IMG/VR virus record: IMGVR_UViG_3300036987_000043
Span: 1-31,774 of that record
DNA: 31,774 nucleotides
From: a virus
Taxonomy: Duplodnaviria; Caudoviricetes
Reading direction: 5' to 3' (one strand)
This document shows positions 22,132 through 28,259 of this stretch, in pieces. The notes below the pieces were generated by a model, which was not told the DNA's origin, did not search any database, and saw only the letters and a list, made by a program, of their open reading frames with translations. How positions within the stretch are numbered: position 1 is the stretch's first letter; the number at the start of each line of letters is the position of its first letter. Both the position numbers and the translations under genes were made by a program.

Positions 22132-22419
22132 TTAGATCATTCCCATCGCGCTCATATAAAGTTCCAGGATTGTCTCTTGCTCGGACCGTTCAGAGGCATC
22201 CTGCTTCCGCATGCGAATGATCGTGCGCAGCGCCTTGACGTCGAAACCGTTGCCCTTGGCTTCGCCGTAGATGTCCTTGATGTCGTCGGAGATCGCTTTC
22301 TTTTCTTCCTCGCATTTCTCAATACGCTCGATGATGGCCTTCAACTGGCCCTTGGCGAAGGTGTGGGACGCCTCTGGATCTGGTTTTGTGCCGGTGTTGC
22401 TGGCGATTTCAGGTGTCAT
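22132..22419 (-). CDS. gapR: GapR/DUF2312-family nucleoid-associated protein
   Basis: QLKAIIERIEK.EEEKKAISDDIKDIYGEAKGNGFDVKALRTIIRMRKQD..ER.EQE.ILELY..A.GM. Confidence 0.93.
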   Translation of the reverse strand: MTPEIASNTGTKPDPEASHTFAKGQLKAIIERIEKCEEEKKAISDDIKDIYGEAKGNGFDVKALRTIIRMRKQDASERSEQETILELYMSAMGMI

Positions 22420-24091: not shown

Positions 24092-24370
24092 TTACGAATC
24101 CCTCCTCTTGCGAATGCAAAGCTCGTAACCAATGACGTTCAGTGCCGCCTCCAGCGTATCGACCTTCGGGGAGCACCGGCTGAACCACGCGCTTATCGTT
24201 GAGCGCCGGATACCTGAGCGATCCGAAACCTCGGTGAGTGTTGTCTTCTGATCGTTGGCGTGCTGTACGAACTGCCGCACCAACGGATGTGCGCGTCGTG
24301 GCGTTGGCAATTTCCCGCGCCACCGACATCCGCGCCCGAGGACAAGATTTTCCAGGCTGCGCTGGTTCAT
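24092..24370 (-). CDS. XRE-family HTH protein
   Basis: HPLVR.F, L.EVSDRSGI..STI..W.....P....LEA.LN..GYEL. Confidence 0.75.
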   Translation of the reverse strand: MNQRSLENLVLGRGCRWRGKLPTPRRAHPLVRQFVQHANDQKTTLTEVSDRSGIRRSTISAWFSRCSPKVDTLEAALNVIGYELCIRKRRDS

Positions 24371-24918
24371 CAGGCCGCCTCGAAATTGAGGAAGAAGGAG
24401 GAGCGCTTCGGCCCTGTGCGGAGCGCGTCAGGACGGCGTGGCGCTGGCGTGTGACCGTGACAAAGCGAATGGTGGGGGCCGCAGTACGAGCTTTCGCCCC
24501 TGACCGGATGGCCGCAAAATGTGAACGGCGCGCCTTCCGACGGATAACGGCACTCGCCCGGCTCGATTGTTAGAATGTCGAGTTCGCGCGAAATGACCTC
24601 GACGCAGCGCGGTTCGGGCTGCTCGACTTCGATCGGCGCGACGATAGGATTGCGGCGAACGGCGCGCGGCCTTTGCGGTTTTGGAGCGCGCGTCTCGCCC
24701 TTGTCCTTCGGCTTCCGCATCGTCTTGTAGCGGACGCCAGCCTTGATCCCGAGCCGGTGCGCGCGACCTATGGCGGCGTTGCGGCTGAACTGTGTTTTGA
24801 ATTCCGCATTGATGAGGACGGCGGCTTGCGAGAGCGACTTTCCGTCCGCAACATGCCTGATAAGAGCGGCATCCATTTCGGCTGTCCATATTCTGAACTC
24901 ACCCTTGCGTGGTGGCAT
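24370..24918 (-). CDS. gcrA: GcrA-family cell-cycle regulator homologue
   Basis: N-terminal WT.......L......G.S.SQ.A..I.....SRNA.IGRAHRLG; C-terminal CRYP......FCG.P.....SYC..H. Confidence 0.9.
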   Translation of the reverse strand: MPPRKGEFRIWTAEMDAALIRHVADGKSLSQAAVLINAEFKTQFSRNAAIGRAHRLGIKAGVRYKTMRKPKDKGETRAPKPQRPRAVRRNPIVAPIEVEQPEPRCVEVISRELDILTIEPGECRYPSEGAPFTFCGHPVRGESSYCGPHHSLCHGHTPAPRRPDALRTGPKRSSFFLNFEAA

Positions 24919-24958
24919 ATGCGCTTCCCCTTCTAGATGCCGCAGTGATGCGAGCGGG

Positions 24959-25120
24959 TTACGAACGAGTTTCAGTATCGAGCCACGGCGCAATCCAAAT
25001 CGCGCCGTTAACGAAGCCGTGCCCGAGTGAGGCCAAGATGCGCGCCACGCTGGTTCGTAGCCTCCTGGGCCAACCTTGACTCCATCTTGAGGAGCCGCGT
25101 GCGTAGATCGTGGATTTCAT
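24959..25120 (-). CDS. Possible small protein overprinted on the 3' end of the CII-like gene (53 aa)
   Basis: SD GAGGAGG 6 nt before ATG 25120; ends ...AIWIAPWLDTETRS. Confidence 0.4.
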   Translation of the reverse strand: MKSTIYARGSSRWSQGWPRRLRTSVARILASLGHGFVNGAIWIAPWLDTETRS

Positions 25121-25340
25121 TCCGCGCCTCCTCTTCTCGTTTGTTTTGAAGTGCTTGTTCGATTTTAAGGGCTTCGTGTGCATCGATGCGCCGGGCCTTG
25201 CCGTACCAAATATCGAAGGCCCGCCAGTATTCGAGGCCGACGATCCGAGCAGCGCGTTCGATCGCGCGCTTGATGAGATCGCCACTCGGACGAGGCTCAG
25301 CCAATTCCTTGAGCGCATCCGCGTATGTGAAGGACTTCAA
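25008..25340 (-). CDS. CII-like transcriptional regulator
   Basis: Position downstream of cro; K.AI.RAAR..GL.Y.R...IWY..AR.I.A.E HTH-like pattern plus C-terminal coiled coil; TTG start with SD GGGAGG. Confidence 0.65.
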   Translation of the reverse strand: MKSFTYADALKELAEPRPSGDLIKRAIERAARIVGLEYWRAFDIWYGKARRIDAHEALKIEQALQNKREEEARNEIHDLRTRLLKMESRLAQEATNQRGAHLGLTRARLR

Positions 25341-25402
25341 AGCGCGTCCCTCCCAAGAAAATTGGGAGATCTCCCAAGGCTAAGGGCAAATAAAAACAAC
25401 AT
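25337..25402 (-). CDS. Leader peptide (21 aa, MLFLFALSLGRSPNFLGRDAL) coupled to the CII-like TTG start
   Basis: SD AAAGGAG before ATG 25402; its TGA overlaps the TTG start (TTGA). Confidence 0.45.
   Translation of the reverse strand: MLFLFALSLGRSPNFLGRDAL
25350..25377. promoter_or_regulatory. Three alternating CTCCCAA/TTGGGAG boxes upstream of the CII-like gene
   Basis: CTCCCAA 25350-25356, TTGGGAG 25362-25368, CTCCCAA 25371-25377. Confidence 0.55.
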
Positions 25403-25420
25403 GATTTTGCTCCTTTCGAT

Positions 25421-25612
25421 TCAGGCTCGACGTTTCAGGAATTCAGGAATGTCCAAGGGATGCGCCATGCCCGGCGCGTTCGTCGCAGCCTCCGGCGACG
25501 AAAAACCAACCGGCGCTGCATGGGCTGGGGATGAGGGAAATGCAGCGCCGGCCGGACGTCCCGCCTCGGGGGTGGATTCGAATGGATTGGGAAGATCAAT
25601 GATGCCGTTCAT
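25421..25612 (-). CDS. 63-aa disordered protein ending in an FtsZ C-terminal-peptide-like motif (LDIPEFLKRRA)
   Basis: SD GAGGA and ATGA overlap with the upstream stop; Pro/Ala/Ser-rich linker; terminal LDIPxFL+basic motif. Confidence 0.65.
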   Translation of the reverse strand: MNGIIDLPNPFESTPEAGRPAGAAFPSSPAHAAPVGFSSPEAATNAPGMAHPLDIPEFLKRRA

Positions 25613-26274
25613 GCCGCGTCCTCTGCTTGGGGTTCAGAGGCAGCGCAAACCTGTGCTATCGTTGCCCTTTTTTGAAGGGGTAAATGGATTTGAGTTCGCT
25701 GTTGAGCGCGGAAATCTGGCCGTGGGTCCGCGATACGGCGACCATCGGCGCGGTAGCTGGAATTGTGAGTGTCGCGGCGCGCGTCCTGTACGAGAAGCGC
25801 AAACAATTGCCGATGATCGACCACAAGATGACTTACACGCGGCACCCGTCCGGCGCTGTTACGGGGTCGCTCGCAGTCACCGTTTACAACCGAGCCGCCG
25901 CGCCTCTGGAATTCCAGAGCCTGAAAATTCTTTCGCCCGAAGGGGTAAAATTCCAGCCGGGGCAAAGAACCAGCGCGGATGGCAAAACGGCCTATGTCGG
26001 ACTGGATATCCCATCGTCCTTGCCGGGTGCCGACAAATGGTCGTCGGGGACGAAATCCGTTGGAATTGTCTGGTCCGGCGAAGCGAAGGCTCGCATTTTT
26101 GTCGCCATGCGCTCCAACAACCAGTTGGTCGTTCGCAGGCTGTCGCGAATCTCGATCACGCTCATGAACAACATGCCGATCGCAAGCGACACCGCGAACC
26201 CGACCGCCAGCGCCGCGGCGCCCAACAGATAATACAGCATGGAAAGAATCCTTGATGGGCGACGACGCAGTCAT
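25609..26274 (-). CDS. 221-codon ORF antisense to the moron, coupled to cro upstream and to the 63-aa gene downstream
   Basis: ATGA overlaps at both ends; the sequence looks like an antisense shadow, so protein function is doubtful. Confidence 0.35.
   Translation of the reverse strand: MTASSPIKDSFHAVLSVGRRGAGGRVRGVACDRHVVHERDRDSRQPANDQLVVGAHGDKNASLRFAGPDNSNGFRPRRPFVGTRQGRWDIQSDIGRFAIRAGSLPRLEFYPFGRKNFQALEFQRRGGSVVNGDCERPRNSAGRVPRVSHLVVDHRQLFALLVQDARRDTHNSSYRADGRRIADPRPDFRAQQRTQIHLPLQKRATIAQVCAASEPQAEDAA
25684..26232 (+). CDS. Moron-like membrane-anchored protein (182 aa) antisense to the early operon
   Basis: SD AAGGGG; extended -10-like TGcTATCGT at 25654-25662; N-terminal hydrophobic helix then a beta-rich domain. 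Confidence 0.7.
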   Translation: MDLSSLLSAEIWPWVRDTATIGAVAGIVSVAARVLYEKRKQLPMIDHKMTYTRHPSGAVTGSLAVTVYNRAAAPLEFQSLKILSPEGVKFQPGQRTSADGKTAYVGLDIPSSLPGADKWSSGTKSVGIVWSGEAKARIFVAMRSNNQLVVRRLSRISITLMNNMPIASDTANPTASAAAPNR

Positions 26275-26537
26275 GCCGCCGCCCCCTCTTCAGCATTGGG
26301 TTCAGAGGTGGCGGGGCGGTTTGCCTCGTCGATGGCAGGCCAAGGAAGGTCAGGACGGAGTTCTATCGCCGTGACAGCGCCTCCGGTCGCCTGCTCGATC
26401 GCCATAGCGAGTTCGGCAGAACAGCGCTCGGTGTCCTTCGCCTGCCAGATGGACGGCTGCTTTACGCCGCACGCGTCCGCCAGCTTGGCCTGCGAGCCGA
26501 GGATGCTAATTGCCTTCTCGATGAGTTCTCGAACCAT
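26271..26537 (-). CDS. cro: Cro-like repressor (YdaS family)
   Basis: AI...GSQ.KLA..CGV.QPSI.., A..IE.ATGG.VT..ELRPDL; divergent from cI. Confidence 0.9.
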   Translation of the reverse strand: MVRELIEKAISILGSQAKLADACGVKQPSIWQAKDTERCSAELAMAIEQATGGAVTAIELRPDLPWPAIDEANRPATSEPNAEEGAAA

Positions 26538-26543
26538 GATTAC

Positions 26544-26615
26544 CGAATAACAGGCAAACCGATAATATTCAATAGTTTTTTCTTTCGTGCCTGTTAATAG
26601 GTTTTCCTGTATAAA
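26544..26615. promoter_or_regulatory. OR region: PR, PRM and 14-bp operators
   Basis: Minus-strand TTGAAT(26572-26567)-17 bp-TATTCG(26549-26544); plus-strand TATAAA 26610-26615; operators ACAGGCAAACCGAT 26550-26563 and ATAGGTTTTCCTGT 26597-26610; degenerate site at 26572-26585. Confidence 0.7.
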
Positions 26616-27275
26616 ATGATTATGAATTCCAAAGAGATAGGACAAATCATCAAGGCCGCCCGCGAGGCGAGAGGGCTTTCGCAGGCCCAACTCGGCGCGC
26701 TAATCGGCGTGAAGCAGGCGTCAATCTTCTCGATTGAGGCTGGCGACACCCAGCGAAGCAAGTTTTTGCCTGAGATCATCCGAGAATTGGCCATCGCACC
26801 CGAGGACGTTGGCCTGCCCAAGGCAGTTGCCCCGGCGGCCGGCATGGCCCCCGTTGGCGATCCCTACGGGCCAAGGGATTTCCGTATTTTCACCGCGGCC
26901 GAAGGCGGTGCCGGCGAGATAATTCGATCCGCAGAGCCGGTCGATTGGTGGCCGCGCCCCATCGAGGTGCAGCAGGTTAAGGGTGCTTACGGTATGTATA
27001 TCGTTGGCGAATCAATGGTCCCGGAATTCCGCCCGGGAAATGTCGCGGTCATCAATCCGCATCTTCCGCATGTCGCCGATAAGCCCTACATTTTCTATGC
27101 CGAAACAGAATCCGGCGTCGTTCGCGCGACGGTGAAATTGCTCCGCAAACAGACCGGCGACGCGTGGCATGTAACCCAGCACAACCCGCCGCCCGGGCAT
27201 AAACACGATTTTACGCTGCCTAAGAAGCTTTGGCGGGAAGCGCACCGAATCGTGGGGCGGCAAGACCCTAGCTAA
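26616..27275 (+). CDS. cI: CI-like repressor (XRE HTH plus S24 autopeptidase); start may be 26622
   Basis: IKAAREARGLSQAQLG..IGV.Q.SI..IE.G; catalytic VGESM.P (Ser) and ATVK (Lys). Confidence 0.93.
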   Translation: MIMNSKEIGQIIKAAREARGLSQAQLGALIGVKQASIFSIEAGDTQRSKFLPEIIRELAIAPEDVGLPKAVAPAAGMAPVGDPYGPRDFRIFTAAEGGAGEIIRSAEPVDWWPRPIEVQQVKGAYGMYIVGESMVPEFRPGNVAVINPHLPHVADKPYIFYAETESGVVRATVKLLRKQTGDAWHVTQHNPPPGHKHDFTLPKKLWREAHRIVGRQDPS

Positions 27276-28164
27276 CCATCAAAAGAAAATCGCTTTCGCC
27301 AACAATCTTGATGCGCGATCCCTTGGCGATCATCCCCTCGCACTTGCGATGCTTTGAGCTTTTTTCCTGCCCCTTTGTAAATCTGAGGTCTTGGTCACCA
27401 ACAACCAGGATCGTCGTCTTTTTGGTAACGCCGTCGGCCACATCAGCGCCAGCTTCCGCTGCCTTCGCCGCAGCCTCTCCCCTCGGAAGGTTTAGCGCCC
27501 CGGTAAAGACCACGATCTCTCCAAGGAGCGGCCCGTCGCCGTCGCCCTGCCTTGCATGCTTCCCTGCGTAAGACGGTTTGCGCGGCCGCCGAACGACGGT
27601 GCCGGCGGCAGTAGTTTCGTAGCCGATCTCATCGATCCAGCCTTGCAGGGGTATGCCGGTATCGTTGATAGCCCGCATAACCACCAGGCCAGCGCAGCGC
27701 GCGTCTTCTGCTGCGTCGTGATGCTTAAACTGGATCTGAAACAACCTAGCTAGGTTGGCGAGGCCGTACCCGCCATCTTCACGATGGCTTGCCCAACTGC
27801 GGCGGGCCACCTGTAAGCTATCAAGCCATGTGCAGGGTAAGCCAACGGTCGAATATTTGACCGCAGCCCGAGCAAGCGCCGTCCGATCGAAAGGACTATG
27901 GTGGACGATCGCCGCGTCACGCAGCGCCTCACCTATAATCGGGAAAACCTTCGCCATCGTTGGCCTGCCGCGGACGTCGTCAGGCCGTATGCCGTGAATG
28001 CTAATATTGACCGGGTCGAAATCGTCTTCCGGATCAACAAGTATAGTTAGAGACCTGAAAATCTCGCCCTGCTTGAAGTGGACCAAGCCGATCGAGCAGA
28101 TGCTCGCAAAGTCCGCATTAGCCGTTTCGACGTCCAACGCCACAAAATCAGTAACCGCAACCAT
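27268..28164 (-). CDS. DEDDh (DnaQ-like) 3'-5' exonuclease fused to a C-terminal BRCT domain
   Basis: ExoI ALDVETAN, ExoII HHSPFD, ExoIII HHDAAEDA; BRCT G..VVFTG.L...R.EA......G......VTKKT..LVVG; SD GGGAG before ATG 28164. Confidence 0.9.
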   Translation of the reverse strand: MVAVTDFVALDVETANADFASICSIGLVHFKQGEIFRSLTILVDPEDDFDPVNISIHGIRPDDVRGRPTMAKVFPIIGEALRDAAIVHHSPFDRTALARAAVKYSTVGLPCTWLDSLQVARRSWASHREDGGYGLANLARLFQIQFKHHDAAEDARCAGLVVMRAINDTGIPLQGWIDEIGYETTAAGTVVRRPRKPSYAGKHARQGDGDGPLLGEIVVFTGALNLPRGEAAAKAAEAGADVADGVTKKTTILVVGDQDLRFTKGQEKSSKHRKCEGMIAKGSRIKIVGESDFLLMVS

Positions 28165-28259
28165 GATGCTCTCCCATGCCCGAAGGCAGGATTCCGCCAT
28201 CGAGCAAAGGATTCAAGTCATTGGAATGACTCAATAAAACCGGATCGACAGCTTTATTG

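Follow-up and report, generated by a model that had tools for sequence, protein, structure and literature searches.

The window analyzed here, a virus record taken at its full length of 31,774 nucleotides (31.8 kb, estimated to be 64% complete), contains a 63-codon open reading frame whose product ends in LDIPEFLKRRA, and the question raised by this locus is whether that ending copies the C-terminal peptide of FtsZ and, if so, what a phage would use it for. The protein, designated P0001 (63 aa, MNGIIDLPNPF...MAHPLDIPEFLKRRA), is encoded on the minus strand; the plus-strand reading of the same interval is interrupted by a stop codon. A preliminary description, which named no strand, had the ORF and its ending right, and the Shine-Dalgarno (SD) sequence and ATGA coupling that it reported are both seen in the sequence (Table 1). 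The 221-codon ORF to which P0001 is coupled overlaps the cro stop in turn.

Searches with P0001 returned no Pfam or PHROG family at E ≤ 0.1, no relative among 50,697 annotated phage records, and three matches at E 0.44 among PDB sequences, to copper oxidase, that were taken as chance. A relaxed form of the tail motif, searched for in six frames of the whole window, matched P0001 and nothing else. The AlphaFold2 model of the protein (pTM 0.20) has no folded domain; it has one helical turn, at residues 57-59, and its highest confidence lies at residues 51-63. The motif is thus predicted to sit in a disordered region with a short helical turn, as expected of a mimic of the FtsZ tail peptide. The closest named cluster in the ESM Atlas was FtsZ_C (0.86), which we treat as a lead only.

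Table 1. Features of the P0001 gene and its surroundings, in window coordinates
Feature	Position	Strand	Remarks
63-aa ORF P0001	25421..25612	minus	no folded domain predicted
FtsZ C-terminal-peptide mimic LDIPEFLKRRA + stop	25421..25456	minus	codons 53-63
N-terminal IIDLPNPF	25580..25603	minus	conserved in most relatives
RNA hairpin 1, 16 bp, C-rich loop	25506..25555	minus	z -5.7; encodes Pro/Ala/Gly-rich stretch
RNA hairpin 2	25481..25500	minus	weaker, alone not significant
RNA hairpin 3, 6 bp, GGCA tetraloop	25462..25477	minus	encodes near-invariant APGMA; GNRA-type loop
Shine-Dalgarno-like AGAGGA	25619..25624	minus	6 nt upstream of P0001 ATG
ATGA overlap	25609-25612	minus	P0001 ATG / TGA of preceding 221-codon ORF (25609-26274)
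cI-like repressor, HTH + S24 peptidase	26616..27275	plus	Pfam/PHROG searches
cro-like repressor, YdaS/P22 Cro fold	26271..26690	minus	Pfam/PHROG searches; true start probably internal ATG
110-aa gene in cII position	25008..25340	minus	best match phrog_26665, function unknown
GcrA-like cell-cycle regulator	24370..24993	minus	PF07750, E 1.1e-19; same operon as P0001
GapR-like gene	22132-22419		same early operon as P0001
33-nt copy of cro 3' end	25613..25645	minus	second copy 26281-26313, 76% alike; flanks ~0.65-kb insert
Insert between cro and P0001 ORF	25646..26280		ORFs 25684-26232 (+, 182 aa), 25609-26274 (-, 221 aa), 25992-26240 (-, 82 aa)
Palindrome TCCCAA-N5-TTGGGA	25351..25367		candidate operator, just before cII-position gene

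Judging from its gene content, the window carries a lambdoid cI/cro-type switch of a temperate alphaproteobacterial phage. The order after cro is the P0001 gene, the 110-aa gene in the cII position (whose 'CII-like' label reflects its position alone), the GcrA-like gene, a methyltransferase, the GapR-like gene, and a replication initiator; the GcrA-like and GapR-like genes are copies of host cell-cycle and nucleoid proteins. None of the three ORFs in the insert between cro and P0001 had a family match at E < 0.05 in Pfam or PHROG. Because a copy of the cro end lies beside the P0001 ATG, the insert probably came between the two genes and doubled the SD/ATGA junction, which suggests that the P0001 gene was formerly coupled straight to cro. 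In the related phage locus L004, cro overlaps the motif-bearing ORF directly, without an insert. A joint that skips the insert was matched by one X2 contig, with a 27-letter side that is not counted as proof. The 182-aa ORF, antisense to the operon and inside the insert, has an N-terminal hydrophobic stretch and is a possible moron. Convergent with cI is a DnaQ-like exonuclease fused to a BRCT domain (27268-28200, minus strand).

The palindrome before the cII-position gene has one match in the window versus none in 100 shuffles. It occurs in 20 of the 32 loci that have a cII-position gene (L004-L035) and, elsewhere among 295 loci, only in L067, which is on the same contig as L004; it is likely to be the operator of the cII-position regulator family. 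An open frame of ~21 codons with its own SD-like AAAGGAG, read by eye (window 25338-25403, minus strand; L004 3940-4004), spans the palindrome; in both phages this frame closes with a stop that overlaps the beginning of the cII-position gene, and it is a possible leader. The early regions of related phages also encode ClpX C4 zinc-finger domains (L010 3340-3849, PF06689 at E 9.6e-9; L100 287-484, from its annotation), which are possible ClpX adaptor decoys; one of these genes is fused to a T5orf172/MUG113 domain.

The GcrA and GapR genes point to an alphaproteobacterial host. Among plasmid records, GapR is matched best by a phage-like plasmid of Bradyrhizobium elkanii (67.7%), and a Bradyrhizobium-type host is likely; the host-like genus was defined as that of G057, which gave the closest GapR in a sample of 151 genomes. 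The FtsZ tail of the likely host group is HLDIPAFLRRQAT, and tails read from genomes end in DDQLEIPAFLRRQSS (Sinorhizobium meliloti record), DDQLEIPAFLRRQAN, and GDDHLDIPAFLRRQAT. When P0001 was compared by BLASTP with the last 60 residues of host-like FtsZ, the tail alone aligned, with 8/11 residues identical, and P0001 contains the core [LI][DE]IPxFLxR including the equivalents of E. coli I374 and L378. The proposal that LDIPEFLKRRA mimics the FtsZ C-terminal peptide is thus upheld by its match to the tail of the likely host group.

Of the 201 genomes searched in the host-like genus, 195 contain the pattern L-D-I-P-[ADE]-F-L-x-R (194 of 200 without the unpublished genome G564), mostly as one copy, and none contains its reversed control. 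All 30 automatically taken pattern loci in this genus were FtsZ or its paralogue, and five hand-picked extra copies were two FtsZ paralogues and three prophage methyltransferase-like proteins. Since all of these are FtsZ or prophage proteins, the tail pattern marks FtsZ in the host-like genus. Its variable position was A in 32/32 host-like FtsZ tails. P0001 itself, searched against 401 genomes of the host-like family, gave 88 weak matches, the best (E 8.9e-4) inside an unrelated transporter gene, and no homologue with this query. Many genomes of the genus also encode a second FtsZ, a shorter paralogue in which the tail is retained (L119, L151, L165, L166, L175, L176, L182, L183). One record titled plasmid pSymB (CP090106.1, L099) is 3.7 Mb long with ftsA-ftsZ and is probably a chromosome.

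Three protein searches identified 31 relatives of P0001, of 40 to 267 aa; with P0001 the family counts 32 proteins, the long repeat proteins P0024 and P0031 being left out. The strict motif is present in 17/32 and a looser form in 20/32. In the first 20 proteins the distance from a shared GMA to the motif ranges from 2 to 198 residues, with a further 2 to 32 residues after the motif. This variable distance with the motif present indicates that the spacer is free and the motif kept. Family members include forms with A at the variable position and the LE form typical of Rhizobiaceae. The other 12 relatives, compared as proteins so that frameshift, truncation, and true loss look alike, lack even the loose motif: five share one common short ending, three contain degenerate copies of the motif, and four have other endings. 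The motif may be dispensable in some lineages, or decaying in dead prophages; P0008 has it although it falls in the same 90% cluster as short motif-less forms. The longer members (P0008, P0011, P0016, P0017, P0018, P0022) contain shuffled modules (VTAGETAP, ARRDEQPN, SRAAVAEVLRPA) that look like extra translated hairpin units inserted in frame, and L005 has one such module without the motif.

Substitution patterns indicate that the tail motif is under protein-level selection. Between contigs of runs X2 and X3 and the window (19 ORF variants scored among those listed), I5, L7, N9, and F58 differ synonymously only, and the middle of the protein has many amino acid changes. The third-position changes at I5, L7, and N9 fall in the N-terminal IIDLPNPF, the putative second binding motif of the preliminary description and a stretch absent from L004. 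Within the motif, L004 differs from the window by two synonymous changes, a conservative E to D replacement, and a changed last residue; the 30 bases past the stop are as conserved as the DNA before it, so that the L004 comparison alone does not isolate selection on the peptide. The motif also remains in frame after inserts of 108-198 codons; the probability that any one of these would be open at the given GC content is 0.1-5%, with the caveat that a search for longer proteins favors open frames. Wider scans found little more: alignment A3 matched two loci in the genome collection, on archaeal and Chromatiales contigs, that were judged composition or motif-only; a scan covering 16 of 64 metagenome parts gave at least one locus in all, motif-only; and a viral scan with the N-terminal part of P0001 gave no further related DNA.

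The spacer has a second identity. Three RNA hairpins form an array between cro and the cII-position gene in both the window (25462-25555, minus strand) and L004 (3785-3880), a position that equals that of lambda nutR/tR1. Hairpin 1 has a z of -3.2 in L004, and in a comparison that rests on these two sequences 13 of its 16 pairs are kept, five via changes on both sides; no such support was seen when the pairing partners were slid. As the hairpin 1 pairing predicts, G22 occurs with P34 in three protein sequences versus A22 with A34 in 11. Hairpin 3 is identical in L004 and hence, being without variation, is without covariation support; a viral scan for it gave 65 hits, none related. The whole 241-nt region folds no better than its shuffles (z -1.1), whereas hairpin 1 alone does. 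No Rfam family reached its cut-off, the nearest likeness being to Atu_C10 (23 bits versus a gathering cut-off of 60). Hairpin 1 was also considered as an intrinsic terminator and rejected: its U-run is altered in relatives, and a terminator scan did not call it.

Because hairpin pairing is conserved, the Pro/Ala/Gly/Ser bias of the P0001 'linker' is best read as a by-product of GC-rich stems. The preliminary description had likened this stretch to the FtsZ linker, which does not hold, as only the 11-residue tail aligns and the spacer consists of translated RNA hairpins with compensatory changes. The hairpins do not account for the tail motif, which is located 3' of them. In the P0001 gene a single sequence encodes a peptide and also bears a conserved RNA structure.

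The DNA pattern of the motif was found 59 times in viral contigs in its D form and 43 times in its E form, versus 1 and 2 times for same-codon scrambles, and by this measure the motif is not a product of chance. The motif is mostly not C-terminal, with 10/59 D-form copies ≤10 residues from a stop. Three of the 59 D-form hits have no start in frame; the 56 in ORFs fall into 23 clusters once the motif is masked. As judged from this clustering, the motif is a portable tag: no fewer than 23 unrelated clusters of phage proteins bear it, and the P0001 gene is one of its minimal carriers. D-form carriers include MT-A70 and ParB-fused methyltransferases, a helicase, a Cas4-like nuclease, a DUF1376 replication protein, a tRNA-guanine-transglycosylase-like enzyme, and many small unknown proteins. 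None of the 36 D-set representatives had a tubulin match, and none of the 43 E-form hits an FtsZ signature. The variable position of the viral copies is D or E in 41/56.

Two groups of carriers have features of their own. Prophage MT-A70 methyltransferases (L038-L092, L180, L181, L184) account for 19/56 hits; in these proteins the motif sits in a lengthy, disordered C-terminal region, and in many cases Q[ST]E[ML]DL comes after it, a sequence that resembles a sliding-clamp motif. Several families of small phage proteins (L036, L051, L055, L068, L072, L073, L098, L251-L291) start with the motif and continue into a region rich in Lys and Arg; words resembling KIPYP or KWxMP are frequent in these proteins. 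In open-licence PubMed Central papers and bioRxiv we found no report of FtsZ-tail mimics from phages or mobile elements.

Like the FtsZ C-terminal peptide (CCTP, CTC, or CTP; DYLDIPAFLRKQAD383 in E. coli), with which it shares the core LDIPxFLxR and the I374/L378 equivalents, the P0001 motif lies near the C-terminus behind an unfolded stretch. Unlike FtsZ, P0001 has no GTPase domain (no Pfam hit; TIGR00065 in 0/1 of the phage record) and hence neither polymer nor avidity; it has E for A and no acidic run before the motif, and its spacer of translated RNA hairpins is no homologue of the FtsZ linker. Lambda Kil, P1 Icd, T7 Gp0.4, and Qin DicB are likewise small early phage proteins, and blocked or delayed division is the likely common outcome; none of the four is described in the sources consulted as a copy of the FtsZ tail, and P0001 matched none of their families (Pfam and PHROG at E ≤ 0.1; 50,697 annotated phage records). 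FtsZ itself is the target of Kil, Icd, and Gp0.4, and DicB works by way of MinC. Lambda CIII, a protease decoy that inhibits FtsH and is encoded in the leftward operon, resembles P0001 as a small early protein that could occupy a protease; it differs in that P0001 has no family match to it and that the motif accompanies a cII-position gene in 1/32 loci. As for the RNA, the lambda cro-cII interval (nutR, tR1) and the HK022 put RNA share with this locus a structured RNA between cro and the cII-position gene, and Atu_C10, whose score is below its cut-off, has a similar C-rich loop; the P0001 element differs from all of these in also being a coding frame.

That P0001 is a selected FtsZ-tail mimic, counting decoy, ClpX-directed, and mixed roles together, seems to us quite probable. 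That it is specifically a decoy for FtsZ-tail receptors, chiefly FtsA, and delays host division is about an even call, although for a protein without a folded domain this would be the simplest reading. Induction would bring rightward early transcription, and translational coupling behind cro would have P0001 made early in lytic growth. Its tail copy would then compete with that of FtsZ for the proteins that bind the tail, above all FtsA, the membrane anchor, and division would be delayed during phage replication so that the replication compartment stays whole. P0001 would in effect be a carrier that delivers the peptide, the middle of its gene doubling as structured RNA.

The partner list drawn up beforehand from E. 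coli stands in part. FtsA and MinC were found in 5/5 host-like genomes, which places these tail receptors within reach of the peptide, but ZipA and ZapD were found in 0/5, so the E. coli list does not carry over; the candidate receptors left in the host would be FtsA, MinC, FzlC, and ClpX. According to PMC4117426, I374 and L378 of E. coli FtsZ are critical for binding ZipA, FtsA, MinC, and SlmA, and the free tail peptide binds weakly (ZipA 20, FtsA 50, and SlmA 81 µM), so that a monomeric decoy would need high levels. PMC10769210 reports that E. coli FtsZ fragments 354-383 inhibit growth when expressed and that AlphaFold puts them on FtsA subdomain 2B. In Caulobacter the CTC binds FtsA and FzlC, as stated in 10.1101/632075. 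In Agrobacterium, Z rings form on FtsA depletion and tail-less FtsZ permits some division (10.1101/412759); the expected phenotype would thus be a late block with branching, and the loss of Z rings that had been anticipated may not follow. In favor of the decoy are the confinement of the tail motif in host-like genomes to FtsZ and prophage proteins, and the GcrA-like and GapR-like genes of the same operon, through which the phage may touch the host cell cycle in other ways too. Against it are the 12/32 relatives that lack even the loose motif and the motif's occurrence in methyltransferases, in a helicase, in a Cas4-like nuclease, and in a replication protein, a distribution that a tag for docking or turnover would explain equally well.

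Such a tag could address ClpX (or ClpA), serving turnover or tethering when attached to enzymes, with the free microprotein occupying ClpXP and stabilizing host or phage substrates. We consider this unlikely as the main role, but it has several points in its favor. PMC8138137 lists the C-terminus of FtsZ among ClpX degrons, and Caulobacter FtsZ turnover needs the C-terminus and the ClpX zinc-binding domain (PMC4285227); the P0001 motif lies two residues from the C-terminal end, related phages have ClpX C4 zinc-finger genes in the same region (L010, L100), and many of the motif-bearing proteins are DNA enzymes, which may be kept to a limited lifetime. On the other hand, blocking the C-terminus stabilizes FtsZ (PMC4285227), yet only the 10 viral copies noted above out of 59 are close to a stop, 2 to 32 residues follow the motif within the P0001 family, and the many internal and N-terminal copies fit poorly. 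The suggestion that P0001 protects its CII-like neighbor, as CIII would, is itself unlikely, since that neighbor has the motif nearby in 1/32 loci examined up to 4 kb on each side. A different partner altogether, whether FtsZ itself or a host protein that is not a known tail receptor, would make the likeness a convergence on a similar groove. The acidic residue in 41/56 viral copies against A in 32/32 host-like FtsZ tails would agree with this, as would FragFold, which also docks tail fragments on FtsZ itself (PMC10769210), but no host protein besides FtsZ was seen with the pattern in host-like genomes, D at the variable position is reported for cyanobacterial FtsZ, and the family includes members with A and with the Rhizobiaceae-type LE form; we regard this reading as very unlikely.

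The hairpins raise the further possibility that the main product of the gene is RNA, a three-hairpin element for termination or antitermination or a small RNA, with the ORF as a tuning leader and the peptide a minor passenger. The z scores of hairpin 1 (-5.7 in the window, -3.2 in L004), its five compensatory pairs, the G22/P34 versus A22/A34 covariation (3 versus 11 sequences), the equivalence in position to lambda nutR/tR1, and the weak likeness to Atu_C10 (23 bits against 60) all speak for RNA function. That RNA is the main product is nevertheless decidedly unlikely, because the motif is located outside the hairpins, its changes are synonymous, its frame is preserved behind the 108-198-codon inserts, and RNA function does not explain the match to FtsZ. 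RNA and peptide roles are compatible, and neither excludes the other. A chance match in an untranslated frame, for which the three start-less frames among the 59 pattern hits might be cited, is extremely improbable given the enrichment over scrambles, the conservation in the family, the synonymous bias, and the SD sequence with coupling.

A broader proposal, which we put forward tentatively and rate a little below an even call, is that a nine-residue copy of the FtsZ tail has arisen again and again in proteobacterial phages as a portable tag for host takeover, placed on dozens of unrelated early proteins or, as in P0001, made alone via read-through of a regulatory RNA. The tag would occupy FtsA and other tail receptors and stall division without touching FtsZ, the acidic substitution tuning the choice of receptor. 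If true, this would be a case of widespread short-linear-motif mimicry by bacterial viruses and would supply a natural peptide inhibitor of the FtsZ-FtsA interface. A tail decoy would take a different route from most known phage division inhibitors, which hit FtsZ, and would aim at a hub where FtsA, FzlC, MinC, and ClpX compete. P0001 would be the simplest test case, since it lacks a folded domain that could confuse the outcome. The natural variants (A, D, E, S, or P at a single position; L/I and D/E in the opening residues) would form a series for reading out which residues each receptor recognizes in polar-growing alphaproteobacteria.
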